Shown here one piece after another: positions 78-62,801 of a stretch of DNA of 64,000 bases; the first letter of the stretch is position 1; each line of letters starts with the position of its first letter. The notes beneath the pieces are model-generated. The model was not told the DNA's origin and did not search any database. It worked only from the letters and a program-made list of their open reading frames with translations. Origin of the DNA: Vampirovibrio chlorellavorus (GTDB lineage Bacteria; Cyanobacteriota; Vampirovibrionia; Vampirovibrionales; Vampirovibrionaceae); assembly GCA_003149345.1 (NCBI GenBank), contig QFWI01000019.1:61397-125396 (forward strand), in the 5' to 3' direction. The position numbers and the translations under genes are program-made.

Positions 78-152
78 TGTGTTTTACCTCTGCTTACTAA
101 CAACTGTAGGGATAATGCTTCACAGGATTGGGATTTGGGAAACCTGAAGGAA

Positions 153-464
153 TTAACCTTCAATAATGCCCAAAATATCCTTTTCGGAGAGGATTTTAAC
201 TTCCTTGCCGGAGAGTTTCACATCGGTGCCACTGTACTTGGCGAACAGGACCACATCGCCAACTTGCACCTGCATTTCCTCACGCTTGCCGCTGTCATTC
301 AGCTTGCCAGGGCCCACTGCCAGGATTTTACCTTTTTGGGGCTTTTCGCGAGCGGTTTCTGGCAAGTAAATGCCACCGGAAGTTTGCTCGGTTTCTTCCA
401 GCACTTCCAGCACGACGCGATCGCCGAGCGGTTTAATTGCGATTTTGGTTTCAGTTGTAGGCAT
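153..464 (-). CDS. groES: Co-chaperonin GroES (Cpn10)
   Basis: The ORF 153..476 translation (IKPLGDRVVLEV...GGIYLPETAREKPQKGKILAVGPG...GDVVLFAKYSGTDV) is textbook GroES. The track start at 476 is a GTG. The ATG at 464 is preceded by GGAGG (rc of 470-474), so 464 is preferred. Confidence 0.95.
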   Translation of the reverse strand: MPTTETKIAIKPLGDRVVLEVLEETEQTSGGIYLPETAREKPQKGKILAVGPGKLNDSGKREEMQVQVGDVVLFAKYSGTDVKLSGKEVKILSEKDILGIIEG

Positions 465-7485: not shown

Positions 7486-8559
7486 CTATTCAATATATTC
7501 TTTCAGGCGACGGCTGCGATTGGGGTGACGCAACTTGCGCAGGGCCTTGGCTTCAATCTGCCGGATGCGCTCCCGGGTTACCCCGAACAGCTGACCCACC
7601 TCTTCCAGGGTGCGTTGACGGCCATCATCCAGACCGAAACGCAGACGCAGGACATCCCGCTCCCGAGGGGACAGGCTGCTCAGCACTTCGGTGAGATCTT
7701 CCCGCAGCAATTCATGGGCGACAGTGGTGGCTGGGGCTTTGGCTTCCCGGTCTTCAATGAAATCACCCAGACGAGAGTCTTCTTCCTTCCCGATGGGGGT
7801 TTCCAAGGACAGGGGCTCCTGAGCCACTTTGATGATGTCGCGCAGCTTGGGCACGGTAATCATCATGGCCGCCGCCAGCTCTTCTTCCGTGGGTTTACGG
7901 CTCAGCTCCTGGGCCAATTTACGGGTGATCTTCTTCAGTTTGTTGATGGTTTCCACCATGTGTACCGGAATACGGATGGTGCGGGCCTGATCGGCGATGG
8001 CCCGGGTAATGGCCTGACGAATCCACCAGGTGGCGTAGGTGGAGAACTTGTAGCCCCGCTCGTGGTCAAATTTCTCAGCGGCCCGAATCAAGCCCAGGTT
8101 GCCTTCCTGAATGAGATCCAGGAACAACATGCCACGGCCCACATATTTTTTGGCGATACTGACCACCAACCGCAGGTTGGCTTGTACCAGCTTTTGCTTG
8201 GCCCGAGCGCCGGACTCGCCGCCAGCCACAATTTGACGGGCCAGCTCAATTTCTTCATCCCCGGTCAGCAGGGGAATACGGCCAATTTCCCGCAGGTACA
8301 TGCGCACCGGGTCATCGAGGGTCAGGCCCCGGGTTTCCACGTTGTACGTTACTTCTTCCTGCTCGTCATCGTTGGTCAGCAGGGCTACGCTGCCGCTACT
8401 GGCGCCATCGTTAAACAGAGAACCAATCTGATCGGAGTCCCCATCGTCAACGGACAAGATTTCATCGACGCCGCTGCGCTCATCACGTCCGCGTTCGCTC
8501 TTGTTGATCATGGCCAACAAGGAGTCTTCACTCTTTTTTGAGGATCTGCGTTTGGTCAT
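7486..8559 (-). CDS. rpoD: Primary RNA polymerase sigma factor (sigma-70 family, group 1-like)
   Basis: 357 aa with regions 1.2-4.2 recognisable ([38 protein letters not shown]...[45 protein letters not shown]...[20 protein letters not shown]). Confidence 0.95.
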
Positions 8560-8611
8560 GGTTGGTATCCATCCCTTATTGTGTTGATAATACGGTTGAT
8601 GTGGGCGCTGA

Positions 8612-10645
8612 CTACAGGTGAGAAGCCTGATCCGGTGTTTGATGCCCCGGAGGCCCTGTATTGGCCAGCAGCCTGTCCTGAAACTGGTAGGTAAGCTCCA
8701 CCTGGTTGCCGTCGTTGCGTAAAGCGTCTGCTTTCAGGGCTTGAAGATGCCTGAGTCGTTGACAGTTGGCAAGCAAAGCGAGCTGTTCTTGCGCCAGATT
8801 CGTCACTTTGTCCTTAAATAATGAACCCTTGATGTCACCCAAGCCGATCGACTCGCAAAAAGACTCTGCCGTAAAGGCCAGTTCGGCGAATGTATGAATC
8901 ACGTCCGGTTTGTCAAAATATAAGTGATTCATTTTGTCGATCAAAGTTCCCACGAATCCATTATCCGATGGATCAGTCTTTGTTTCAAACTGGGCGGTAT
9001 CCAGGTTTTGCAAGCCGGTCAAAATCTCTTGATGAACCGGGTCATCAAAAGCCAGAGCGGTTTGCGCTTGTAGGAGACGCATCATGGTGAAGAAACTTTC
9101 AGTCGAGTACAGGGCAAGTTTCAGCAGGTTTTTTTCCACGGTAACCTGCCGGGAGGACAACTGGGCGCGAAGGACGGTGACGTTCTCGGTGGGTGCAACC
9201 TCGCTTCTCCTGAATGAAGTCGAACCCCCTTTGGAAATTGCTTTTTTTCGATCGGATTTTTGAAAACCGGCAAAGTTTCGGTTAGCCTGCGGGTTTCTGG
9301 CAGACTCGTAGCGTTTGACTTCCAAGGCCAGGGACTCTTCATCCAGACCAATTTGTTCGGAGAAGAGCTTTAGATATTCCGCTCGCATGGTGGGACGCTG
9401 AATGGCGGCCAAGAGAGGCGTTAAGCGATTGGCGGCCTGAATGCGCCCTTCCGGGCTGTGACAATCGATTCCCCGAATGGCCATGCCCAGCTTAAAGGTT
9501 AAAAAGTGCTGGGCTTCTTCCATTAAGGCCCGGAAGGCCTCCCCGCCATGCTGCCGGATAAAATCATCGGGGTCTTTGCCGTCGGGCACAATCAGCACCT
9601 TAATTTGCAAATCCCCGCTTTCGGCGTAAGGCTCAATCAGCTGGATAGCGCTTAAAGCCGCCTTTAGGCCCGCTTCATCCGAGTCAAAGGCCAGGTAAAC
9701 GGTCTGGGCCCCAAAGCGGGTCAGCAACTTCAGGTGGCTATCGGTCATGGCCGTGCCGCAGGAGCCCACCGCTTCCGTGATGCCGTGGAGGTGTGCGGTA
9801 ATGACGTCGAAGTAGCCTTCCATGATGATGGCCGTTCGACTGTGCCGAATGCTGTCCTTGGCCTGATGGAAGCCGTAGAGAACCTGACTTTTTTTGTATA
9901 GCAACGTTTCCGGGGAGTTCAGGTACTTGGGCTTATCCTCATCGCTGAGGGCGCGGCCCCCAAAGGCCACCACTTGTCCTTTTTCATCCTGGATGGGGAT
10001 GATCAGCCGATGTCGAAACCGATCGTATTGCCCCTGTCCGTGATCGCGCGTATTGGCCAGACCGGCAGTATTGAGTAAATCCGGGTTGGCCTGTACAAAA
10101 TCAAACTGGTTTTTGAGGTACGGGGTCAGGTTTTCCCACCCGGGCAGGGCATAGCCCAGATGGAAGGCCTGAATGGCTTGCTGACACTGTTGCGTGTCAG
10201 TGTATCGCTTGCTCAGGTACTGACGCACCTCCTGAGCAGCAGCGGTTTGGAGTTGCAGGGCAAACCACTGGCTGGCCGATTCATTGAGGGCCAGAATTTT
10301 TTGCCGGGCATCCCGCTGGATTTGTACAGTTTCGGCCTGCTGGCCTTCGTACTGAATGTCAATGCCCTGCTCCTGGGCCAGATCCCGGATGAGTTCCCCG
10401 AAGGTTTTATTTTCGATTTTCATTAAAAAGGTGAGAGAATCGCCGCCCACCCCGCAGGAAAAGCACTTAAAAATGCCTTTTTCCCGACTGACATTCATGG
10501 AGGGGCTTTTGTCGTTATGAAAAGGACACTTGCCCGTGTAGCTGCGCCCGGTTTTTTTCAGAACCACGTGCCGCTGGATGACATCCACAATGTCCAGCCC
10601 GCTTTTGACCCGCTCAGCGGCTTCCGCAAAGGTCAGGCGGCTCAT
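8612..10645 (-). CDS. dnaG: DNA primase
   Basis: 677 aa with the zinc ribbon ([30 protein letters not shown]) and the TOPRIM region ([17 protein letters not shown]...[10 protein letters not shown]). Its start overlaps the upstream gene stop by 4 nt (ATGA). Confidence 0.95.
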
Positions 10646-11691
10646 TGGGTTAATTCCCCGGAGAACATATTGACGCTAAAGGCCCGGTAGGCTTGCGGCA
10701 GCAGGTAATTCTTGTAGGCCTCTATGGCAAAGCGGTCGGTCATGCCGGAGATATAATCCAGAATGCGCCGCTCCAGCGAATCGGATGCGGGCAGGTTGGG
10801 GCTGAGGGCTTCCGGGTGCTTGCTGTAGAACTCGTACAGGGCCAACAGCATGCGGCGCACGTTTTCGGTTTGCTCCATGCGCTGCGGGGCCAGATAGATG
10901 TTGTCAAACATCCACTGCCGCAAGGCCATCATGGCTGCCCAGGTTTCAGCGGACAACGCGATGGTGGGGTTTCCTTCGTTTAAATTTTGAGCGCTGGTGC
11001 GGACCATATCGCTCACCATGCAATCCAGTCGCTCCAGCCGATTGGCCCCTAAAGCCGTTCGGATGGCCTGAGGGAGATCGTTGTCCTGCATAATCCCGGC
11101 CCGTCGGGCATCTTCCACATCGTGGTGGAGGTAAGCCATGCGGTCTGCAATGTCTACAATCTGGGCTTCCAGTGTCAGAAAAGAAGGTTTTTCCGGGGTC
11201 AGCCCTTCCATGCCGTCCAGCACTTCCCGGGTCAGGTTCAGGGGTTCCAGCACGGTCACGATGCGCAAGCCCTGTTCCTGATGATGATAGCCCAGCGGGG
11301 AAAGCTCGTTGAGGACGTGTTCGCCGGTGTGTCCAAAAGGCGGATGCCCCAGATCGTGAGCCAGGGCAATGCTTTCGGTTAAATCTTCGTTCAGGCGCAA
11401 GGCCCGGGCAATGGTGCGGGAAACCTGGGCCACTTCCAGGGTGTGGGTCAGGCGGGTCCGGTAATGATCGCCCATGGGGGCAATGAACATTTGGGTTTTG
11501 TGCTTGAGTCGGCGGAAGGCTTTCGAGTGCAGGATGCGATCCCGGTCTCGCTGGAAGTCAGTACGAATTGGGCAAGCGTTTTCCGCTTTTAGTCGTCCCA
11601 AAGAGGTCGCACTACGTGCTGCCAGCGGATGCAGCCATTGTGCCTCTAGCGCTTCTGTGGACTCCCGAATCTCCAAAACACCCGCTGTCAC
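10642..11691 (-). CDS. dgt: dGTPase-like HD-domain triphosphohydrolase
   Basis: 349 aa with FQRDRDRILHSKAFRRLKHKTQ...RTRLTHTLEVAQVSR...AHDLGHPPFGH, typical of the dGTP triphosphohydrolase-like family. The start codon is GTG. Confidence 0.85.
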   Translation of the reverse strand: MTAGVLEIRESTEALEAQWLHPLAARSATSLGRLKAENACPIRTDFQRDRDRILHSKAFRRLKHKTQMFIAPMGDHYRTRLTHTLEVAQVSRTIARALRLNEDLTESIALAHDLGHPPFGHTGEHVLNELSPLGYHHQEQGLRIVTVLEPLNLTREVLDGMEGLTPEKPSFLTLEAQIVDIADRMAYLHHDVEDARRAGIMQDNDLPQAIRTALGANRLERLDCMVSDMVRTSAQNLNEGNPTIALSAETWAAMMALRQWMFDNIYLAPQRMEQTENVRRMLLALYEFYSKHPEALSPNLPASDSLERRILDYISGMTDRFAIEAYKNYLLPQAYRAFSVNMFSGELTQ

Positions 11692-53715: not shown

Positions 53716-54894
53716 CTACTTCTGATAAAAAGGTCTTTCAACGATCTCAGCGTCCACATCCACCCCGCGTACCCGGATTTGAATGGTGTCACCCGGGCCG
53801 ATGACCGTTTGGGAGCGAATATATCCCATGCCAATAGGCACGTTGAACAGGGGCGAAATGGAGCCGCTGGTTACAGTACCCACCGGTGCACCGTTTTTAT
53901 AAATGATATCGTGCTGGCGGGCAATGGTTCGTTTGTTGATGGTAAAACAATAAAATTCCTTGTCCAGCCCTTTTTCCTGTTGTTGGAGGAGAGCCTGTTT
54001 GCCGATGAAGTCTCCCGGCTTGTTGAGCTTGACTGACCAGGCCAGCCCCGCCTCCAGAGGCGTGTCGGACTCAGAAATATCGTGCCCGTGCAAGGGATAC
54101 GCCGCTTCCAGGCGCAAGGTATCTCGCGCGCCCAGTCCGATGGGTTGCAGTCCAACGGGTTTCCCCAAATCCAGCAGTAAATCCCAGAGATATTCCGCTT
54201 TGGCTGCCGGAACAATGATTTCTACGCCATCTTCGCCCGTATAGCCGGTTCTGGACAGAAGCACGGATGCCTCCTGGATGGTGGCGTCCGAAAGCTGGAA
54301 CCGTTTGGGTAGATAGTCCGTATCAAAGCCGGTGCGGGCCAGGATATCGGCAAATAATGGGCCCTGTAAAGCAAACAGGCTGGCTTGCTCGTACAGATCC
54401 TGAACCTGAATCTGTGGATAATGCAGCGCCTTCGATTGTGTTCTCAGCCAGTCAAGGTCTCTCTGGGCGTTGGCCGCGTTGCAGATGACCATGAATTCCT
54501 GAAATTCAGGAAAGGCTGGCAAGTTCGGGAGCATGTAGACAATGACATCATCGATGATGCCGCCCTGTTCGTTTAAAAACTGGGTGTAAATGGCTTTCCC
54601 CGGAAACAGCTTACGCAAATCCTGTGCCACCAGGCGATCCAGAAACGCGCGGCTGGTTTCCACATCGCCGCAGGACACAACCACCAGGGCCATGTGGGAA
54701 ATATCAAACAGCCCTGCCGCCTGGCGGACGGCGTGATGCTCTTCCAGCACTTTGCCGTATTGCAAGGGCATTTGCCAGCCTGCAAAATCAACCATTTTTG
54801 CGCCACGGGACACATGGTTGTGGTAAAGCGGTGTTTGCCTGGAGAACGTTTTTAATTCGGGAGCGTTTGGCTCCGGCGTGGGTTGGGTCGTCAT
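53716..54894 (-). CDS. gcvT: Glycine cleavage system aminomethyltransferase T
   Basis: 392 aa: TPLY..H...GAKMVDFAGW.MPLQY...EHHAVR..AGLFDISHM...SRTGYTGEDG.EI...GLGARDTLRLEA.... Confidence 0.95.
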   Translation of the reverse strand: MTTQPTPEPNAPELKTFSRQTPLYHNHVSRGAKMVDFAGWQMPLQYGKVLEEHHAVRQAAGLFDISHMALVVVSCGDVETSRAFLDRLVAQDLRKLFPGKAIYTQFLNEQGGIIDDVIVYMLPNLPAFPEFQEFMVICNAANAQRDLDWLRTQSKALHYPQIQVQDLYEQASLFALQGPLFADILARTGFDTDYLPKRFQLSDATIQEASVLLSRTGYTGEDGVEIIVPAAKAEYLWDLLLDLGKPVGLQPIGLGARDTLRLEAAYPLHGHDISESDTPLEAGLAWSVKLNKPGDFIGKQALLQQQEKGLDKEFYCFTINKRTIARQHDIIYKNGAPVGTVTSGSISPLFNVPIGMGYIRSQTVIGPGDTIQIRVRGVDVDAEIVERPFYQK

Positions 54895-55251: not shown

Positions 55252-56169
55252 TTACGAAGCGTGTGTCTGGTAACTTTGCTCAATCACTTTTTCAATAATA
55301 GTCGGGGTTTCCCGGAGGAGTGAGCCTCTGTCACTGTAGCATCCTCGGGTATAGTATAGCAGAAATTCGATATTTCCTTTTGGCCCAGTGATAGGAGAAA
55401 AATCAAATCCGGCCAAAGTCCACTGGGGCAGTAAATTCTCCAGATCCTGAAGCACCCCGCTCACAATGGCTCGGTGGGTTTCCAGGCCTTTCACCACCCC
55501 TTTGAATGTGGAGTCCTGAATGTAATCCTTATGCTCAAACTGGGGCTTCAGCAGGGCCACTATTTCCGCATCCGGGCTCAGCAATTCGCTCAGGGGGGGT
55601 AGCACTTTTTTGAGAGAGATAAATGAGGTGTCCACCACGCCTAGTGAGGGCTGGCCCTCCAGTTGTTCCGCTTTCAGCTCCCGAATGTTGGTTTTTTCCA
55701 GCACCTGAACCCGCTGATCGCTTCTTAGTTTCCAGTCCAGTTGCCCGTAGCCCACATCCACGGCAATCACTTGACTGGCCCCGTGCTGTAGTAGGCAATC
55801 GGTAAATCCGCCGGTCGAAGCACCCACATCCATGCACACCCGATCCTGTACCTGAATCTCAAACAGGGGCAGGGCCTTGGCCAGTTTCAGTCCCCCACGG
55901 CTGACAAATGGTTGCAGCCCGCTTACCTCAATATCGGTTTCCTCCACGGAAATCAGGGTGCCTGGCTTTTTCAGGGCCTCTCCCCGCACTTTGACCTTGC
56001 CGTCCATAATGAGGGCTTGAGCCTGGGCACGGGTACTGCACAGGCCCCGATCCACCACGAGTTTATCCAGTCTTTCTTTTTGAGTGGCCAAGGTTTGGAT
56101 CTCTTTTGCATCTCTTATTGTAGACTTTTCTATACTACAAGGAATGGGCATCCCGAGAAAGCAAAGCAA
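55252..56169 (-). CDS. tlyA: TlyA-family rRNA 2'-O-methyltransferase (S4 + FtsJ domains)
   Basis: 305 aa ORF: RLDKLVVDRGLCSTRAQAQALIMDGKVKV (S4-like) and CMDVGASTGGFTDCLLQHGA..V.AVDVGYGQL (SAM site). The real start is probably downstream of 56169 (for example TTG just before ATQKERLDKL), because pth starts 9 nt away on the other strand. Confidence 0.85.
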   Translation of the reverse strand: MLCFLGMPIPCSIEKSTIRDAKEIQTLATQKERLDKLVVDRGLCSTRAQAQALIMDGKVKVRGEALKKPGTLISVEETDIEVSGLQPFVSRGGLKLAKALPLFEIQVQDRVCMDVGASTGGFTDCLLQHGASQVIAVDVGYGQLDWKLRSDQRVQVLEKTNIRELKAEQLEGQPSLGVVDTSFISLKKVLPPLSELLSPDAEIVALLKPQFEHKDYIQDSTFKGVVKGLETHRAIVSGVLQDLENLLPQWTLAGFDFSPITGPKGNIEFLLYYTRGCYSDRGSLLRETPTIIEKVIEQSYQTHAS

Positions 56170-56177
56170 ACTGGCTT

Positions 56178-56768
56178 ATGAGCGATAAATTTCTCATTGT
56201 GGGGTTGGGTAACCCCGGCAAACAGTACGAAGCCACCCGTCATAATATTGGCTTTATGGTTTTAGAGGCGTTAGGTCGCCGGGCGGGCATCGTCGGCAAG
56301 TCGGAGAGTCGCTTTAAGGCCATGGTGGGTTTGGGTCGTTTGGGCCGTTATTCGGTCATTCTGGCCCAACCGCTGACCTACATGAACTTATCGGGGGAAG
56401 CCGTCCTAAAGCTGATGAATTACTACGATGTTCCGTCAGAGCGCTTGTTGGTGGTTTATGACGAGGCCGCCCTGCCCTTCGGCAAAATCCGGGTGCGCCC
56501 CGGTGGCAGCGATGCGGGTCAGAAAGGGGTGCGCTCGATAATCCAGCAGTTGGGCGGCAATCAGCAGTTTGCTCGCTTGCGGGTGGGCATTGGTTCTCCT
56601 CCCCCGCCGATGACCATGCCGGATTTTGTGCTGTCCAAATTCGCGCCGGAAGAACAGCAGCATTTGCCGGAGATTATTGAGGCGGCCCTGGATGCTGTGG
56701 AGTCCTGGATGAGCGCAGGCGTGGAAGAGACTATGACCCGTTATAACGGGCGTTTGTTAATACCCTAA
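56178..56768 (+). CDS. pth: Peptidyl-tRNA hydrolase
   Basis: 196 aa: LIVGLGNPG..Y..TRHNIGF...KP.TYMNLSG.AV...V.YDE..LPFGKIR.R..GS..G..G..S. Confidence 0.95.
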   Translation: MSDKFLIVGLGNPGKQYEATRHNIGFMVLEALGRRAGIVGKSESRFKAMVGLGRLGRYSVILAQPLTYMNLSGEAVLKLMNYYDVPSERLLVVYDEAALPFGKIRVRPGGSDAGQKGVRSIIQQLGGNQQFARLRVGIGSPPPPMTMPDFVLSKFAPEEQQHLPEIIEAALDAVESWMSAGVEETMTRYNGRLLIP

Positions 56769-56774
56769 GAGTCA

Positions 56775-57743
56775 CTAATGGCCACCTGCCCAGTGCTTCA
56801 GCATTTTAGCCAGTGGGCGATAGCTATGATCCAGCACAAAGTTTACCCCCTTGTCGATGGGATGCACGATGAAGGGAATAATAGCCATACTGCCGATTAA
56901 CGGTAAGGCGATACACAGGTTTTTTTCGGCTTTGGGGCCCCATTTTTGAACCATTTCGGCAACCTTTTGGGAGGGCTTGATTTTTTGCAGCAGGGTTTGG
57001 TCAATGCCCTTTTTCAGCTTGCCCAGTAGGCGTTGATCGAAACGATACCAGCCTTTGGCTTCAATCTCGTGACGGATTTCATGCTCCAGTATCTCTTTGA
57101 CCGCTTTTTGCTTGCCGAGTAGACGGTTTAGGCCCAGTTTCAGGCTGTCTCGGGTCGCTGCTACCAGAAAGGCCGGGATGGAATAGCTGGCCCCGTATTG
57201 GAACAGGGCCGCGTCCAGACCGGAGGTGGTGGCGCTGAGAACTTGAAGGCCTTGGCTTTCCCCGGCCTTTTGGGATTTGCGGTATCCTTTGGCGGCTTTA
57301 TCAAAGGCATCCAAGGCCACGTAACCGCCCACTGCCGTGTAAGAGTGCTTGACAATGCCATCGGCTTGATTCGCGAAAAAGGAAGAGGCTTTGAGCCAGT
57401 CCTTGAGGGATTCTCCCAACTCGTTCAAGTAGCCCATGTAGCGCAGGGGCGTGTCCCGGAAGATGTCTTTGGACTGTACCGTTGAAGGCTGGTGCTGATG
57501 GGAGCCTTGATGAGGTTGATGATGGCTTGATCTGCCTGCCGGCATAATACTTTGGGCAGTCGGTATCGGGTTTTGGACAGGAGGCGGTACGTGGAATGCC
57601 TTGGTGGTTGTTGGGCTGCTCCAAATCGGGGAAGGCGTTTGCAAAGCGCTTGGCCGAATAGACCCATAAACGCTTGGCGGGTATGGCTGCGGGGAGGCCC
57701 AGGCAGGGATTGTCGGTAAGGTATTCGCTAGAGTCGGTTGCAA
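56775..57743 (-). CDS. Hypothetical membrane protein with MTFP1/MTP18-like domain and Pro/His/Gln-rich N-terminal extension
   Basis: 322-aa ORF (TTG start at 57743; first ATG at 57545). From residue 95 or so it reads FRDTPLRYMGYLNELGESLK...SYTAVGGYVALDAFDKAAKGY...IPAFLV...IIPFIVHPIDKGVNFVLDHSYRPL. This parallels my recollection of eukaryotic MTFP1 motifs. The start codon is uncertain. Confidence 0.55.
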   Translation of the reverse strand: MQPTLANTLPTIPAWASPQPYPPSVYGSIRPSALQTPSPIWSSPTTTKAFHVPPPVQNPIPTAQSIMPAGRSSHHQPHQGSHQHQPSTVQSKDIFRDTPLRYMGYLNELGESLKDWLKASSFFANQADGIVKHSYTAVGGYVALDAFDKAAKGYRKSQKAGESQGLQVLSATTSGLDAALFQYGASYSIPAFLVAATRDSLKLGLNRLLGKQKAVKEILEHEIRHEIEAKGWYRFDQRLLGKLKKGIDQTLLQKIKPSQKVAEMVQKWGPKAEKNLCIALPLIGSMAIIPFIVHPIDKGVNFVLDHSYRPLAKMLKHWAGGH

Positions 57744-57840: not shown

Positions 57841-58704
57841 TCAAGCAATGCTTTTCTGGCTTAAAATGCGGGCGCTGCCCAAGGTTTGTGCCAATTGGGT
57901 CAGGAAGCGTCTTACCTGGGGAATGGCGGCGTTGTTATTGATGACCAGGTCGGCCACCTCACGGGCGGGCAGAATATGTCGCTCCAGGCATTGCACGGTG
58001 GTATTCCACATATTGTCGGTGATGCCCCGGTTTTCCTGAATGTTGCGGGAAAGCCAGCGCTGACGGCGGGTCTTTTCATCCACGTCCACGTAAATTTTAA
58101 ACTGGTACAAGGGTAAAATGGCTGGTTCGTAAAAGGCGTGAATACCTTCGGTGACCATAAACGGGGTCACTGGCAGATGAATGGCTTCTTCAATAATGGC
58201 AGGCTTTTGATCCGGGGTGCCAAAGCGCAGTTTGGGAATAGAAATACTGCTGCCAAGGGGCTGGGCCTGAAAGCGTTGTAAATCACGCCCCAAATGGCGA
58301 AAGCGAATGTGATCCGGGTCATCGAAGTCGATATGATCGTAAAACAGGCTCAGGGGCAGGTGCGGAAAATCCGCCTCAAAGTCCCGATAGTAGTTATCCT
58401 GGGTAAAGGAGGCCACCTCGGTGAACTGGCTCAACTCCCGAACCAGCGTTTCCCGGATAAAAGATTTGCCGGAGCCGGAAGGGCCTGTCAGGGCCAAGAT
58501 GAAAGGCTGAGGGACAAAGGCGATATGATGAGCCCACCGGGATAAATCATCCCAGAAAAATAGCGAAACCGATTGCGCAACCGGTATTTCGCTTCGGCTG
58601 TCCTCGGTCAGGAGCGCTTTTACCTGAGAAATGACCTGATCAGTCACTCTGGCTGATTGGGGGGGAGCCTCCGAACCAGTGGAGGGTTGATTTTTATGTG
58701 TCAT
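57841..58704 (-). CDS. udk: Uridine kinase / phosphoribulokinase-family P-loop kinase with N-terminal extension
   Basis: 287 aa with Walker A LTGPSGSGKSF, then SFTQDNYYRD...DFDDPDHIRF...PKLRF......MVTEGIHAFY...KIYVDVDEKTRRQRWLSRNIQENRG, the Udk-family order of motifs. Confidence 0.7.
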   Translation of the reverse strand: MTHKNQPSTGSEAPPQSARVTDQVISQVKALLTEDSRSEIPVAQSVSLFFWDDLSRWAHHIAFVPQPFILALTGPSGSGKSFIRETLVRELSQFTEVASFTQDNYYRDFEADFPHLPLSLFYDHIDFDDPDHIRFRHLGRDLQRFQAQPLGSSISIPKLRFGTPDQKPAIIEEAIHLPVTPFMVTEGIHAFYEPAILPLYQFKIYVDVDEKTRRQRWLSRNIQENRGITDNMWNTTVQCLERHILPAREVADLVINNNAAIPQVRRFLTQLAQTLGSARILSQKSIA

Positions 58705-58933: not shown

Positions 58934-60046
58934 GTGATGAGTCAGCAATCGGACAATCTGGACGCCAGTTTCGCGCTATTGACGGAAGCGGTAGTGGGGT
59001 TGGAGGACAACGCCCGATCTTCAGAGGGTCAGCCCCTGTCGGCCCGCCGAGCGCTGAATGGAACGGCCTATCGTATTTATCGGCTCCTGCAATGGCTCAT
59101 TCAATCGCCTCTGACGGTGGATCAGCTGAACCGAAAGTTTGAGCAGGACCCGGGCATTGGCAAATCCGTTTCCAATGATTCTATCTGGCTGTATATCAAT
59201 ACCCTCAAGGCGTTGGGATGTGTCATTCGTCGGCCCACTCCACGCAACGGCTTTGCCTATCAAATGGTCAGTCATCCCTTTGGAATGTCCCTGGAGCAAA
59301 ATGGTCTTGAGGTTCTGGCGCAGGCCAAGGTGGTGGCTCAACGGCACTTCTCGCCCCAGGAAATGTTGGCCCTTGATAGCCTGCTGAAGAAGATGATCGT
59401 CCAGAGCCTCTTGAAAGGGTCTGAGGATGGTAGTGAGTGGACGACCCAGTTGTTTGTCCAAAGCCGCAGTCTGGATTCTCAGGAATGTCGAACCCGCATT
59501 GAGCAACTGGAGAGGGCCATTCTGGAAGAGAGTTTGCTGGAAGTGACTTATGCTTCCCCTCTGAAGGGCGAAAGCGTGTTTACCTTTTTGCCAGAGAGCC
59601 TGTTTTATCGGCAGGGGGTGGTGTACGTGCGTGGCGAACGCCTGGACTATCCGGGCCCTAGCAGTTTGCGAGTCGATCGTTTATTGGGTGTGCAAACGGT
59701 GCAGGACGATGATCTGCGCGCTCAACTGATTGACCGTCAGCAGATCAAGATGGAGATTGTGCTGAAAGTTTTTGTGAAGTCACCGCAGGGCTTCCAGGGG
59801 TTCGCCCTGGATCCCAATCAGGGGGTCTATCAGGAAAGCCGCCTGTGGGTGGATGGGGTGGAACCCCATTACGAGGTTCGTTTGCAGGTGCGGGACTTCT
59901 TTTATGTCAAGCAAACCCTGTTGTCTTTGGGCTTGCCCTTTGCCATTGAGAGCCCGGAGGTATTCAGGCAGGACGTGAGGGAAACCCTGCGCACCATGCT
60001 GGAATTTTACAAGGTGAAAGGAAGTGCAGCGGATGGCCATGGCTAG
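58934..60046 (+). CDS. HTH-WYL-WCX transcriptional regulator, paralogue 1 (PafB/PafC-like architecture)
   Basis: 370 aa (GTG 58934 / ATG 58937). The N-terminal winged-HTH-like segment reads YRIYRLLQWLIQSPLTVDQLNRKF...IWLYINTLKALGCVIRR. The central WYL-like segment reads LEVTYASPLKGESVFTFLPESLFYRQGVVYVRGERLD...LRVDRLLGV. The C-terminal domain ends ...LGLPFAIESPEVFRQDVRETLRTMLEFY. Confidence 0.7.
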   Translation: MMSQQSDNLDASFALLTEAVVGLEDNARSSEGQPLSARRALNGTAYRIYRLLQWLIQSPLTVDQLNRKFEQDPGIGKSVSNDSIWLYINTLKALGCVIRRPTPRNGFAYQMVSHPFGMSLEQNGLEVLAQAKVVAQRHFSPQEMLALDSLLKKMIVQSLLKGSEDGSEWTTQLFVQSRSLDSQECRTRIEQLERAILEESLLEVTYASPLKGESVFTFLPESLFYRQGVVYVRGERLDYPGPSSLRVDRLLGVQTVQDDDLRAQLIDRQQIKMEIVLKVFVKSPQGFQGFALDPNQGVYQESRLWVDGVEPHYEVRLQVRDFFYVKQTLLSLGLPFAIESPEVFRQDVRETLRTMLEFYKVKGSAADGHG

Positions 60047-61013
60047 TGTCCCCTCAGAGGTGTTTCAGAATATTAATATCTCAGCGTACCGGGTGCTGTT
60101 CATTCTGTTGATGTTGGTGCGGTATCGTAGCCTGAATATGGTGGAGTTGAACCGTCTCCTCTACGAAAACCCCATGATTGGCCGGGGCTACAATTCGGAA
60201 ACGCTCACCAAGTACATCAACACGTTGCGAGAAGTGGGCTGTCGTATTCCCCGCTCTACCAACCGCAACGATTACAGCTATGAGTTGCTACGAAATCCTT
60301 TTCCGCTGTCTGTAGAGGCCAAGGAGCTTTCTGTGGCCCGCAAGCTGCTGGATATCCTGGCCAGTCAGCCAGATGAGGTTCTGTATCAGGACTATCGTCG
60401 CCTGATGGAAGATTTGGCCTGGGCGGTGGGTTGTAATGCATCCCTTGAGATGGAGGAGGAGGCGGGCTTGGTTCCGGTCACCCCTTTGCGAGATTTAGGG
60501 TTATGGCGGCAGCGTTTTAATGAATTCAAGCGCTATTGCCAGGAGGCTTTTGCCCTGGATCTCCAGTATGCCGATCCCGAACACGGGGTTCAGGACTTTT
60601 CGATTGAGCCTTATGACATTCTGGAGCGAGGAACCCGGCTTTTGTTGTTGGGCCTGGATCGGAGTAGCCAGGAGCAACGCTTGCTGGATCTGGATCGGAT
60701 TGCCTCGGTGCGCCAGTCGCCTTCTAAAAATCGCAGATCCCCAGTCCAGGTCACGGTGGTATTCGCCCTGTATGGGCGCTTGGCCAAAAGTTATCGCTTA
60801 TACCCGGACGAGCGTCTGGTTTACGCTTCGCAAACGGAAATTCACGTTAAAACCCGGCTTGCGGAGACCAGCGGCTTGATGCTGCGTCTGTTGAAGTATG
60901 GCGCATCCTGCCAGATACTTTCCCCTGATGGGCTGCGAGACGCCATGCGTCAGCACATTGAAGGTTTGCTATCGGCGATGGAAGGCCAGCCTCCCGCCGG
61001 GATTACAATTTAG
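60033..61013 (+). CDS. HTH-WYL-WCX transcriptional regulator, paralogue 2
   Basis: ORF 60024..61013 (GTG 60024; ATGs at 60033 and 60039, GGAAG upstream). It has the same architecture as paralogue 1: AYRVLFILLMLVRYRSLNMVELNRLL...LTKYINTLREVGCRIPR; LDLQYADPEHGVQDFSIEPYDILERGTRLLLLGLD...LDLDRIASV; ...YGASCQILSPDGLRDAMRQHIEGLL. It overlaps the stop of paralogue 1 (60044-60046). Confidence 0.7.
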   Translation: MAMASVPSEVFQNINISAYRVLFILLMLVRYRSLNMVELNRLLYENPMIGRGYNSETLTKYINTLREVGCRIPRSTNRNDYSYELLRNPFPLSVEAKELSVARKLLDILASQPDEVLYQDYRRLMEDLAWAVGCNASLEMEEEAGLVPVTPLRDLGLWRQRFNEFKRYCQEAFALDLQYADPEHGVQDFSIEPYDILERGTRLLLLGLDRSSQEQRLLDLDRIASVRQSPSKNRRSPVQVTVVFALYGRLAKSYRLYPDERLVYASQTEIHVKTRLAETSGLMLRLLKYGASCQILSPDGLRDAMRQHIEGLLSAMEGQPPAGITI

Positions 61014-61447: not shown

Positions 61448-61666
61448 ACGGGATGGCTTCCTCCGGTTGGGTGGTGGATTGATCGCAATCGATGCTCATT
61501 TCAAAGCTTATTCTAATTGGCGGTTCTGTCAAAAGCGTCCGGCAGGTGCAGTATTTTTAATTTTTGTCGTCGCCCCTCGTTCTGGTTTCATGCCCAGAAT
61601 CGACTTGTGGGTGACCTACCGGCTTCAGTACAATGAAAGTCGTACACCAACCCAAAAGGAAACACC

Positions 61667-62801
61667 GTGGATTTCTCCGATATTAAACGCCGACTGGATG
61701 CCCTGGCCCCTCGTCTTGATGCGGCAAGGGGGTTTCTTTGACACCCCGGCCATTCGGGAGCAAATTGCCAATTTAGAAAATAAAAGCACGCTGCCGGGCT
61801 TTTGGGATGATGCGGATGCCGCTCAATCGGCCATGCAGGAACTCAATGAACTGAAGGATAGTATCGCCCGCATGCAGCGCTGGGATCAGGCCTTGAGTGA
61901 TCAGCAGATTCTACTGTCTATGGGGCAGGAGGAAGGGGATGACTCGGTGATTGCCGAGTTGGATAGTGAATTATCAGCATTGGAAGCCGAAGTGGATGCC
62001 TGGGAGCTGCAAAGTCTGTTGAGTGACGAGTATGACAAGTGCGATGTGATTATTACCATCAGCGCCGGGGCGGGTGGCACCGATGCCCAGGATTGGGCCC
62101 AGATGCTGATGCGTATGTACCTTCGCTGGGCGGAGCAGCAGGGCTTTAAGCGGGACGTTCTGGACGTGAACGAAGGGGAGGAGGCTGGCATCAAGAGCGC
62201 TTCCATTCGTCTGAGCGGGAAGTACGCCTATGGTTATGCCAAAACAGAGCGGGGCGTCCATCGTCTGGTTCGTATTTCTCCGTTTAACGCTTCTGGGAAG
62301 CGGCAAACCAGCTTTGCCTCTCTGGAGGTGAGTCCGGTGGTGACCGGGGTGACCGCCGCGGATATCGAGATTCGTCCTGAGGACATTGAGCTGGATACCA
62401 GTCGCAGTGGTGGCGCTGGTGGGCAGAATGTCAACAAAGTGGAAACGGCGGTGCGTATTGTACATAAACCGACGGGGATTGTCGTGCGCAGTCAGCAGGA
62501 GCGTAGTCAGTTGCAGAACCGGGAAATCGCTATGGATATGCTGCGATCCAAGCTATTAGCCCGTAAAATCGCCGAACATGAAGCCAAGCTGGCAGCCAGC
62601 CGGGGTGAGGTCATGGATGTGAACTTTGGCAGTCAGATTCGTTCCTATGTGTTTCACCCCTACAGCATGGTCAAGGATCATCGCACCAATGAGGAAACCG
62701 CCGATGTGGACAGGGTCATGGATGGCGACTTAACCCGCTTTATTGAGGCCATGCTGCGGTTGCGGCAATCTCAGGTTCTAGCCGCTGAAGCGGCCAGTTA
62801 G
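61667..62801 (+). CDS. prfB: Peptide chain release factor 2, expressed through a programmed +1 ribosomal frameshift
   Basis: Frame 0 starts at GTG 61667 (AAGGA 8 nt upstream) and reads [24 protein letters not shown], then the in-frame TGA at 61739-61741. Shifting +1 at CTT TGA C continues with [13 protein letters not shown]... in the frame of track ORF 61467..62801. That frame contains the SPF-type region ([10 protein letters not shown]) and GGQ ([16 protein letters not shown]). Confidence 0.95.
61727..61742 (+). promoter_or_regulatory. RF2 autoregulatory +1 frameshift site (internal SD-like AGGGGG, slippery CTT, stop TGA, C)
   Basis: The sequence AGG GGG TTT CTT TGA C compares with the E. 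coli prfB site AGG GGG TAT CTT TGA C. Confidence 0.9.

Follow-up and report, generated by a model that had tools for sequence, protein, structure and literature searches.

[quoted passage not shown] The gene is a stable, vertically inherited component of the Vampirovibrio chromosome, and its product is very probably a membrane protein. As a whole, the observations are best explained, tentatively, by a membrane protein that is anchored at its C-terminus and acts in the predator's own membrane. The MTFP1/MTP18-like domain had been recognized in the original prediction, and profile search, hhalign and Foldseek all identify it as a true divergent homologue. The lifestyle of the source organism, which had been left for confirmation, is given by the close homologues, which belong to Vampirovibrio chlorellavorus, an obligate epibiotic predator of Chlorella (PMC4451040). 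No report of this bacterial gene was found in the literature searched. The features discussed below are listed in Table 1.

Table 1. Position of the MTP18-like gene, the segments of its product and the neighbouring genes in the window.
Feature	Position	Strand	Basis or remark
MTP18/MTFP1-like CDS, complete	56775..57743	(-)	322 aa + stop, TTG start at 57743; ORF listing
N-terminal extension, residues 1-91	57471..57743	(-)	Pro/Gln/Ser/Thr/His-rich, predicted disordered
MTP18 domain part 1, residues 92-208	57120..57470	(-)	hhalign to classical MTFP1-type proteins
Lineage-specific insertion, residues ~209-269	56937..57119	(-)	Lys/Glu/Gln-rich; single gap in hhalign
MTP18 domain part 2, residues 270-322	56775..56936	(-)	last membrane helix and IIPFIVHPIDKGVNFVLDHSYRPL motif; hhalign
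Predicted transmembrane helix, residues 276-294, LCIALPLIGSMAIIPFIVH	56862..56918	(-)	Kyte-Doolittle
PRK/uridine-kinase-family protein, 287 aa	57841..58704	(-)	97 bp upstream of the MTP18-like gene; PF00485, 52 bits
WYL+WCX regulator genes, overlapping pair	58934-60046, 60024-61013	(+)	Pfam WYL/WCX; PADLOC WYL matches
pth, peptidyl-tRNA hydrolase	56178..56768	(+)	convergent, downstream; ORF listing
tlyA-like S4/FtsJ methyltransferase	55252-56169	(-)	Pfam FtsJ+S4; synteny with L003 and L012
gcvT	53716-54894	(-)	synteny with L003 and L012

The same TTG start and the same length of 322 codons, with zero indels, recur in two further loci, L001 and L002. Of the two starts considered in the original prediction, TTG at 57743 and ATG at 57545, it is thus the TTG that stands. 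Among three Vampirovibrio genomes, dN/dS was 0.15-0.20 for the whole gene and 0.06-0.15 across the domain core and the insertion; judged by these ratios, core and insertion are both under purifying selection. The GC content and composition of the gene are those of its flanks.

Residues ~92-322 are, by profile and motif comparison, homologous to MTP18/MTFP1 over the whole domain. An hhalign comparison of the bacterial profile with 21 classical MTFP1-type proteins, among them named annelid and thrips MTFP1, gave a probability of 99.95% and an E-value of 7.7e-38 over 160 columns. A bacterial-only profile gave 687 protein matches with E<=1e-3, 236 of them with E<=1e-10, in a library of 1.84 billion representatives, and a database-wide phmmer search retrieved PF10558-positive proteins at E-values of 5e-7 to 1e-4. 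The profile search through a word-indexed database overlooked most of the divergent bacterial members and yielded few extra names. Further, the four sequence blocks earlier said to parallel MTFP1 are all present and were aligned by BLASTP with a human MTFP1 sequence (E 2e-16, 26% identity, two gaps), which serves as a lead only. On PF10558 that human sequence reaches 67 bits, and its identity to MTFP1-type proteins in the database is 55-61%.

The Pfam hmmscan suggested as a check on the original prediction did not reach the curated threshold. The full-length protein gave no MTP18 match even at E<=10, and with the insertion deleted it scored 21.0 bits on PF10558 (E 3.7e-4, covering 21-168 of the 171 profile positions), short of the 25-bit gathering cutoff; the orthologues scored 19.7-22.6 bits or not at all. 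Searches of the intact protein against Pfam and NCBIfam returned noise only (Phage_C at E 0.25 and lycopene cyclase at E 0.05). The Pfam miss is not evidence against homology, as the domain is split by the insertion.

Conservation of individual residues agrees with the profile comparisons. R101, Y141, P290 and D297 (window numbering) are invariant among 85 aligned family members, while R96, G104, Y105, N107, E108, E111, Y135, D145, Q182, A185, S186, P190, I289 and P295 are conserved in at least 90% of them, and the window protein carries every one of these residues. It has in common with MTFP1/MTP18 the motifs RDTxLRYxGYxNExGE, SYxVxxYVxxDxxDK, (W/F)QxxAS...P and IPxIVHPID...RP, the first part of the domain containing KDIFRDTPLRYMGYLNELGES, SYTAVGGYVALDAFDKA and DAALFQYGASYSIPAF. 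Small deviations from the family motifs are 'FQ', with F for W, and PA for PG.

Structural comparison points in the same direction. In a Foldseek search of predicted structures, the AlphaFold model matched proteins named 'Mitochondrial fission process protein 1' or 'Mitochondrial 18 kDa protein' from Terrestrivirus, Fadolivirus and Tupanvirus with probabilities of 1.00, 1.00 and 0.98, respectively. The target-normalized TM-score was 0.52-0.53 for these three named models and 0.54 for an unnamed one, E5EQS8. A PDB sequence search returned nothing, and PDB fold searches with a low- and a high-confidence model gave best E-values of 0.77 and 0.4, respectively, to helices of ABC transporters, which are not significant; by these searches, no solved structure of the MTP18 family was found for comparison. 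A review considered as a source of structural information (PMC12477198) was dropped, as it places a GTPase domain at residues 101-300 of a 166-aa protein.

Classical MTFP1/MTP18 proteins are compact, with ~160-180 aa, whereas the bacterial protein has 322 aa and does not have this compact architecture. Homology extends throughout the ~150-residue domain, and both proteins are all-helical with hydrophobic helices in equivalent places. The bacterial protein has in addition a disordered Pro/Gln-rich N-terminus of ~90 aa and a charged helical insertion of ~61-70 aa, and differs from MTFP1 in having a less hydrophobic first helix and a more hydrophobic last one. The AlphaFold model is all-helical, with a pLDDT of 82.6 overall and >90 in the domain.

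The Pro/His/Gln-rich N-terminal extension of ~90 aa described in the original prediction corresponds to residues 1-91. Both AlphaFold models place them below a pLDDT of ~65; means over 10-residue blocks are 28-35 for the first model and 43-63 for the second. The extension contains 19 P, 10 Q, 22 S/T, 6 H and 3 K+R with no D/E, and by composition it is neither a Sec/Tat signal peptide nor a mitochondrial presequence. Its dN/dS is 0.38-0.58, without indels, among the three Vampirovibrio genomes. Analogous P/Q/Y-rich N-terminal extensions are often present in other bacterial MTP18-like clades.

The first part of the domain (dN/dS 0.08-0.15, pLDDT >90) is modelled as helices at residues 99-119, 124-159 and 164-208. 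It is followed by the insertion, for which three helices are predicted (212-227, 232-250 and 259-267) and which carries 14 K+R and 8 D+E. A K/E/Q-rich insertion before the last helix had been described with a length of ~55 aa; composition and place were correct, but the length is ~61-70 aa. The motif spacing is accordingly 194 residues, as against 120-128 in classical members, and the insertion is not present in classical MTFP1. It is common to clade A, the bacterial group that includes the window protein, and its dN/dS of 0.06-0.13 marks it as functional. The second part of the domain has a dN/dS of ~0.08-0.10 and ends in a basic tail, the last 16 aa of which include 3 K+R and 2 H with no D/E.

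The hydrophobicity of the helices bears on the membrane assignment. Averaged over 19 residues, Kyte-Doolittle hydropathy reaches 2.17 at residues 276-294 and 1.21 at residues 178-196. In every bacterial clade, the last helix exceeds its eukaryote-type counterparts in mean hydrophobicity (1.68-1.97 against 1.59); the first membrane helix lies below that of eukaryotic members.

The gene is part of a conserved block consisting, in order, of two WYL regulators, the PRK-like kinase, the MTP18-like gene, pth, tlyA and gcvT. This order is identical in L003 and L012, whose MTP18-like proteins are 60% and ~34-39% identical to that of the window, respectively, and whose neighbouring genes are 51-80% identical. 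An orthologue lies in the same housekeeping block in five independent assemblies (the window, L001-L003 and L012). The tlyA-like and gcvT products show 69-80% identity to the L003 and L012 copies, and pth, the stop codon of which is 6 bp from that of the MTP18-like gene, is 79% identical to the L003 copy and 68% to the L012 copy, a Pept_tRNA_hydro match being found at the equivalent position in L012. The MTP18-like gene is the fastest-evolving member of the block.

A position between a convergent pth and a kinase gene, as originally proposed, is borne out by the ORF listing for pth and by PF00485 for the kinase. The description of the gene as monocistronic is less well supported: the kinase-like gene lies 97 bp upstream in the same orientation, and the two are neighbours in L003 and L012 as well. 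Between the two genes, which are possibly co-transcribed, no terminator-like site was detected; a promoter and terminator scan around the MTP18-like gene gave counts at the level of shuffled sequence. NCBIfam uridine kinase models match the kinase-like protein below threshold only. The WYL+WCX pair is divergent from the kinase/MTP18-like pair, and the same layout occurs in L003 and L012. A role in a defence system was rejected: PADLOC was silent on the MTP18-like gene and gave only generic WYL matches for the neighbouring regulators.

The gene order and composition also bear on whether the finding is an artefact, either a chance or compositional similarity to MTFP1 or DNA of the algal prey wrongly assembled into a bacterial contig. 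Such concern is raised by the lack of an MTP18 match in the Pfam hmmscan of the intact protein and by the sequencing of V. chlorellavorus from a co-culture with Chlorella (PMC4451040). An artefact is refuted by the hhalign result, the 236 library matches at E<=1e-10 and the conservation of all the family signature residues, together with the bacterial gene order shared by five independent assemblies, the flank-like GC content, the purifying selection and the 0% bootstrap for affinity to picoalgae (see below). The 64-kb window carries prfB in addition to pth, tlyA and gcvT, and on account of these genes and the flank-like GC content the DNA is bacterial and not contamination.

Among prokaryotes the family is very rare. 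A motif scan with only two peptide patterns, which took in 185,579 bacterial and archaeal species at one genome apiece, had matches in four Vampirovibrio/Vampirovibrionales genomes and nowhere else; scans of 72,556 plasmids and of 50,697 phages gave no copy. The original view of the family as essentially eukaryotic is supported by this pattern scan with regard to prokaryotes, but needs amending with regard to giant viruses, which carry it widely. Further homologues in bacterial context occur on metagenomic contigs, including L005, L007, L009 and L010. Comparison of the ORFs of these four contigs with the Vampirovibrio loci showed aroQ alone to be common, at ~60% identity, and L007 bears an AvrB/AvrC-like gene in addition to its homologue. 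P0212 and P0202, examined as other bacterial lineages, were rejected as their contexts are eukaryote-type.

One other Vampirovibrionales genome contains three paralogues, namely P0125, which passes Pfam (39.5 bits), and a tandem pair in L004, in which the HPID motif is lost and no Pfam match is obtained. The L004 paralogues are located between aconitase and ribonucleotide reductase, and the L008 homologue adjoins a two-component system and pyruvate kinase. The P0125/P0021, P0026 and P0031 types and the L004 pair share the domain and a bacterial context with the window protein; however, they are without the long insertion, lie at other loci and are only ~20-30% identical to it. Mutual identity among the bacterial clades A-D and the L004 pair is ~20-40%.

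Giant viruses (Tupanvirus, Terrestrivirus, Fadolivirus and prasinovirus-like contigs) carry the same family and, like the predator, parasitize eukaryotic cells. Their copies are of the classical short type, pass Pfam (58 bits) and are made within the host cell, so that secretion is unnecessary. Metagenomic viral copies are 47-61% identical to picoalgal proteins, which indicates recent capture from a host. The bacterial profile scores viral copies at 61-71 bits and short-form library matches at 66-102 bits, and on these scores it has no special affinity to the viral copies.

In an unrooted, bootstrapped neighbour-joining tree of 160 columns, clade A received 96% bootstrap, the grouping of clade A with picoalgal P0011-P0014 0%, and an all-bacterial grouping 26%, or 20% with the L004 pair. 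In the observed distance tree, clades A-D group together and the two L004 paralogues stand apart. A recent transfer from green-algal prey was rejected on the basis of the 0% bootstrap with P0011-P0014 and a GC content equal to that of the flanks. The appearance of P0011-P0014 as the first eukaryotic matches was a word-index effect; in an exhaustive search they rank near 137th. Horizontal acquisition had been proposed in the original prediction, and a recent or isolated gain is not borne out by the flank-like composition, the conserved block and the several paralogous clades. Most parsimoniously, the bacterial branch would derive from an ancient transfer from a eukaryote to an ancestor of the Vampirovibrionales, followed by duplication and divergence.

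The reverse direction, in which the MTP18 fold arose in the cyanobacterial/melainabacterial lineage and was gained by eukaryotes before their last common ancestor, appears quite improbable. The great diversity of the bacterial sequences, the presence of three paralogues in one genome and the full integration of the gene into a core block would all fit an ancestral bacterial family. Likewise, the bacterial sequences nest inside no sampled eukaryotic group, and clades A-D come together in the distance tree, but their grouping has low bootstrap values in an unrooted tree of 160 columns, and fast bacterial evolution can look like antiquity. Mitochondria derive from Alphaproteobacteria, and the two-pattern scan found no homologue in that class. 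In addition, the confirmed prokaryotic carriers belong to one order, as against a pan-eukaryotic family; the jakobid Andalucia also has an MTP18 orthologue (PMC7050145).

The question of where the protein acts is finely balanced: action in the predator's own membrane, at about even odds or slightly less, is preferred to action in the prey. In the proposed mechanism, the C-terminal helix would anchor the protein in the cytoplasmic membrane of the bacterium, and the moderately hydrophobic helix 178-196 may also be embedded. The role would be that of MTFP1 in the bacterium-derived inner mitochondrial membrane, namely to organize or stabilize an energy-transducing membrane and to limit leak; mechanical fission is not part of the proposal. 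MTFP1 itself is dispensable for fission, and it limits proton leak dependent on ANT and the sensitivity to permeability transition pore opening, ANT and the pore being its partners (PMC9636241). The disordered tail and the charged insertion would serve as lineage-specific cytoplasmic interaction modules, and the gene and the kinase next to it may be expressed together, controlled by the divergent WYL regulators. ANT and the permeability transition pore are not known from bacteria, and because such partners are absent an endogenous role needs another mechanism.

Action in the predator's own membrane is favoured by the location of paralogues amid housekeeping genes, the conserved gene order and the lack of plasmid or phage copies and of any PADLOC match to the gene. 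Membrane anchoring is supported by the hydropathy of residues 276-294 and 178-196, the confident all-helical model and an N-terminus that has neither a Sec/Tat signal nor presequence character. The reading is weakened by the fact that the order of the confirmed carriers is typified by a predator of eukaryotic cells, a pattern typical of effectors, and that the window protein stays below the curated Pfam threshold. The fastest evolution in the block, together with several paralogous clades, fits an arms race as well as relaxed constraint.

These points lead to a second possibility, that the protein is exported by a type IV secretion system (T4SS) as a host mimic and inserts in the inner membrane of the Chlorella mitochondrion, or of another organelle, where it would mimic MTFP1 or be a dominant-negative form of it. 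Disturbed membrane integrity and dynamics of the prey would then lead to its quicker collapse. This is considered doubtful, and a more elaborate form of it, in which a whole set of MTFP1 mimics (this long form and the paralogous clades) is injected into algae by the T4SS and collapses the mitochondrial or plastid inner membrane, is unlikely. V. chlorellavorus attaches to Chlorella, and injection of effectors by a T4SS has been proposed (PMC4451040); however, no T4SS genes adjoin the MTP18-like gene and its composition is that of the genome. The family is eukaryotic save for giant viruses, with Vampirovibrio/Vampirovibrionales as the confirmed bacterial carriers, and the repeated capture of MTP18 genes by giant viruses of protists and algae suggests that parasites of eukaryotic cells gain from having copies. 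The gene outpaces its neighbours in evolution, multiple divergent paralogues occur per genome and the disordered N-terminal tail is variable, as might be expected of an effector. The AvrB/AvrC-like gene on a contig with a bacterial homologue points the same way. In contrast, the gene does not show the accessory, patchy distribution of effectors: it lies in a shared block, and synteny with housekeeping genes is kept down to ~34-39% protein identity, which is unusual among effectors.

Properties of the protein speak on both sides. Transmembrane effectors of the Legionella T4SS pass through an inner-membrane intermediate, and such hydrophobic proteins can be secreted via a C-terminal signal (PMC11602083), so that the strongly hydrophobic helix is also compatible with secretion. 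A basic C-terminal tail, and a first membrane helix of lower hydrophobicity than in eukaryotic members, would both suit export. Against export, the last helix is more hydrophobic than in the eukaryotic homologues, and the N-terminal extension is not a mitochondrial presequence.

The direct precedent for an exported mimic is LncP of Legionella, a mitochondrial carrier of eukaryotic type that is secreted by the Dot/Icm system and assembled in the inner mitochondrial membrane (PMC3252375). LncP and the MTP18-like gene are both bacterial homologues of inner-mitochondrial-membrane families once thought to be eukaryote-only, and their carriers both live at the expense of eukaryotic cells and both have a T4SS (PMC4451040). 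The two differ in several respects. LncP is a six-helix SLC25 carrier and not a member of the MTP18 family; its secretion and mitochondrial assembly were shown experimentally, whereas for the MTP18-like protein both are hypothetical; Legionella is an intracellular pathogen, whereas Vampirovibrio is an extracellular, epibiotic predator of algae; and, unlike LncP, the MTP18-like gene sits within a deeply conserved housekeeping block. MTFP1 is homologous to a bacterium-encoded protein in this case, and action in the predator's own membrane remains the preferred, if tentative, explanation.

MTFP1 is studied medically in heart failure, liver steatosis and cancer, and its molecular activity is still unclear. 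The bacterial branch offers a tractable, intron-free and highly diverged set of homologues, which could define the invariant core (R101, Y141, P290 and D297) and probe membrane activity outside mitochondria. It adds a clean case to the few membrane families, otherwise 'mitochondria-only', that are known from bacteria exploiting eukaryotes and for which LncP is the model, and together with the giant-virus copies it suggests that MTFP1 is a recurrent target of capture. The predator is also a pest of commercial Chlorella ponds, and the finding raises the testable hypothesis that an alga-killing predator hits the organelles of its prey with a mimic of an inner-membrane protein. If injected mimics were confirmed, they would provide the first case of a predator delivering a mimic of an organizer of the inner mitochondrial membrane, in parallel with independent capture by giant viruses. 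If, instead, the protein acts in the predator's own membrane, the function of the family would be independent of its mitochondrial partners.

The product of the MTP18-like ORF had been proposed, in the original prediction, to resemble MTFP1, with a Pfam hmmscan for MTP18 as the suggested check. Taken literally, that check failed: the intact window protein had no MTP18 match, even at E ≤ 10, and with its insertion deleted it aligned to positions 21-168 of the 171 in PF10558 (the Pfam model of MTP18/MTFP1) with 21 bits (E 3.7e-4), which is under the 25-bit gathering score. Its orthologues likewise scored 20-23 bits or had no match. The resemblance itself is nevertheless confirmed, because every test more sensitive than Pfam hmmscan (phmmer, a bacterial profile, hhalign, signature residues and Foldseek) was decisive. 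Database-wide, phmmer retrieved PF10558-positive proteins. A profile built from ten bacterial homologues alone and searched against 1.84 billion representatives hit 687 proteins at E ≤ 1e-3, of which 236 reached E ≤ 1e-10, and classical, short eukaryote-type members matched it as two stretches, one on either side of the insertion. In an hhalign comparison with 21 short proteins of the classical type, among them named MTFP1 of an annelid and a thrips, the same profile gave a probability of 99.95% (E 7.7e-38) over 160 columns. The window protein also retains all invariant and near-invariant family residues in an 85-sequence alignment, and its AlphaFold model resembles giant-virus proteins annotated as MTFP1/MTP18 (Foldseek probability 0.98-1.00). 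As a lead only, a sequence taken as that of human MTFP1 (67 bits on PF10558; 55-61% identity to database members) was matched by the window protein with a BLASTP E of 2e-16 covering all four blocks. The window protein is thus a divergent MTP18/MTFP1 homologue and not a threshold-passing Pfam member.

Features of the window protein, its neighbourhood and related bacterial loci
Feature	Position	Strand	Remarks
MTP18-like ORF	56775..57743	-	322 aa, TTG start (ORF listing)
pth	56178..56768	+	convergent with MTP18-like gene; stop codons 6 bp apart
PRK/uridine-kinase-family gene	57841..58704	-	same strand as MTP18-like gene, 97 bp upstream
two overlapping WYL+WCX regulator genes	window 58934-61013	divergent from kinase/MTP18-like pair	beyond kinase
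N-terminal tail	residues 1-~91		disordered; 19 P, 10 Q, 22 S/T, 6 H, 3 K+R, zero D/E
core, first part	residues ~92-208		helices 99-119, 124-159, 164-208; conserved N-terminal and central motifs
insertion	residues ~209-269		three helices; 14 K+R, 8 D+E; not in classical MTFP1
core, second part	residues 270-322		helices 270-287, 289-306, 308-321; IPFIVHPID motif
tandem pair (L004)	7998-8663 and 8766-9494		between aconitase and ribonucleotide reductase
P0125 gene (L008)	10001-10672		GCA_964390635.1

Two start codons had been considered, TTG 57743 and ATG 57545 (M67); the TTG is favoured, since it and the codons after it are conserved in three Vampirovibrio genomes (the window, L001 and L002). All three ORFs run for 322 codons with zero indels, and the upstream intergenic region does carry an indel. 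Existing gene calls of this family (P0003, P0004, P0005) begin too late. P0004, the existing 220-aa call in the window, starts at M103 (57435-57437), within the most conserved motif (RY-M-GY), and the named V. chlorellavorus protein (258 aa) is without most of the N-terminal tail. Among the same three genomes, dN/dS (Nei-Gojobori) was 0.08-0.15 for the core, 0.06-0.13 for the insertion and 0.38-0.58 for the tail. The ORF is a real gene under constraint. At 0.52-0.55, its GC content does not differ from that of the neighbouring sequence. Artefact or contamination can practically be dismissed.

The AlphaFold model, made with a deep alignment, had a mean pLDDT of 82.6, exceeding 90 across the domain, and a pTM of 0.69; PDB sequence and fold searches returned no solved structure resembling the fold. 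The N-terminal and C-terminal motifs stand 194 residues apart, as against 120-128 in classical members. By hydropathy, residues 276-294 are a strong transmembrane candidate (Kyte-Doolittle mean 2.17) and residues 178-196 a moderate one (1.21). Compared with eukaryote-type proteins, every bacterial clade has a less hydrophobic first helix (means 0.66-0.81 versus 1.12) and a more hydrophobic last one (1.68-1.97 versus 1.59). The N-terminal tail is not a Sec/Tat signal, and it is not a mitochondrial presequence either.

Gene order is shared by the window, L003 (another Vampirovibrio genome) and L012 (a metagenomic contig): two WYL regulators, kinase, MTP18-like gene, pth, tlyA and gcvT, the last two lying on the pth side. 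The MTP18-like protein, ~34-39% identical to the window protein in L012, is the fastest-evolving of this block, at 60% identity versus L003 (neighbours 68-80%) and 39% versus L012 (neighbours 51-75%). In the window the two WYL+WCX genes share 23 nt, an arrangement resembling that of PafB/PafC. The pair also stands beside the kinase/MTP18-like pair at L003 4490-6683 and L012 1602-3684, and this retention over deep divergence hints at a regulatory link. Farther along the window, a prfB (release factor 2) ORF (61467-62801) encodes 444 aa from a TTG, of which the profile match spans residues 90-431 only; the residues ahead of the match may be due to the programmed frameshift usual in prfB, or the start may have been placed too far upstream.

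Close homologues come from Vampirovibrio chlorellavorus. A scan of one genome per species across 185,579 prokaryotic species, with two peptide patterns that take in the classical eukaryotic motifs too, found relatives in only four genomes, all Vampirovibrio or Vampirovibrionales. Searches of 72,556 plasmids and 50,697 phages gave no MTP18-like copy. Provisionally, the family among prokaryotes is confined to Vampirovibrionales. An exhaustive profile search added further bacterial-looking homologues without the insertion, many with P/Q/Y-rich N-termini; P0026, P0021, P0031, P0009 and P0125 clearly sit in bacterial surroundings. Three paralogues occur together in an uncultured Vampirovibrionales genome (GCA_964390635.1): P0125, a short form that passes Pfam with 39.5 bits on PF10558, and the very divergent L004 tandem pair, which has LDP(V/I)AE in place of the HPID motif and no Pfam match. 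A phage-like region (L008 12978-20672; P2-type capsid domains, then many small ORFs) begins ~2.3 kb downstream of P0125, with no evidence that the P0125 gene belongs to it. On the bacterial contig L007, a gene (1557-2261) encoding the C-terminal part of an AvrB/AvrC avirulence (type III effector) domain (33.8 bits) lies 8 kb from the P0021 gene. On contig L005, aroQ (type II dehydroquinase; 373-861) is 59-62% identical to Vampirovibrio aroQ (L001-L003, ~13.3-13.9 kb) and, as in Vampirovibrio, has the MTP18-like gene within ~5-8 kb, which weakly hints that L005 is a relative. Precomputed PF10558 matches already exist on some bacterial metagenomic proteins, and literature searches turned up neither MTP18 homologues described from prokaryotes nor any account of the window gene.

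In a distance tree built on the MTP18 domain with bootstrap, clade A (the long form with the insertion) received 96% support. Nothing points to a recent capture from green algae, since grouping of clade A with picoalgal proteins had 0% support. All bacterial sequences formed a single group in only 26% of replicates, or 20% with the L004 pair. Parsimony favours an ancient import into bacteria because the family is pan-eukaryotic, present even in the jakobid Andalucia (PMC7050145), whereas the confirmed bacterial carriers belong to one order. That the entire family arose in bacteria, a matter of history and not of mechanism, is improbable.

Classical MTP18 proteins are also encoded on 101 contigs of a viral collection (IMG/VR), some labelled giant-virus MAGs. 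The one copy checked (L054, 4917-5549) passes Pfam with 58 bits on PF10558; the same contig carries PhoH and mannitol dehydrogenase genes. Identity between the viral and picoalgal proteins is 47-61%, and contig GC is ~40-44%; the contigs are consistent with prasinovirus-like viruses, and their sequences suggest host capture. Annotated MTFP1-like proteins also occur in Tupanvirus, Terrestrivirus and Fadolivirus (BFVD). Thus, since giant viruses carry copies, parasites of eukaryotic cells have captured this family repeatedly.

[quoted passage not shown] The window protein, as a homologue, would work alike; it is not an orthologue, as it falls under the curated Pfam cutoff, is without the compact architecture and cannot share the mitochondrial context. 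By a small margin we prefer, at somewhat short of even probability, an endogenous protein of the predator's own membrane. For it speak the housekeeping block, whose synteny runs deep, the strength of purifying selection, the native composition, the high hydrophobicity of the last helix and the lack of any association with mobile elements. Less probable, though a serious contender, is a secreted mimic delivered by a T4SS, which V. chlorellavorus has been proposed to use on Chlorella (PMC4451040), and then inserted into prey organelle membranes. The restricted, lifestyle-correlated carrier distribution, the several paralogous clades, the fast evolution and the giant-virus parallels speak for such a mimic, as do the precedent of LncP (PMC3252375), its closest functional analogy, and hydrophobic effectors that use a C-terminal signal and are secreted via an inner-membrane intermediate (PMC11602083). 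As an endogenous protein, it would be held in the cytoplasmic membrane of the predator by the C-terminal helix and would help to organise that membrane or keep it intact; the tail and insertion would be cytoplasmic modules for interaction, and the WYL regulators may control the gene jointly with the kinase gene. Homology, architecture, selective constraint, synteny and distribution are established here, whereas we infer localisation and activity. The finding is solid and the organism makes it intriguing; a eukaryote-like protein in a eukaryote-exploiting bacterium belongs to a theme already known.
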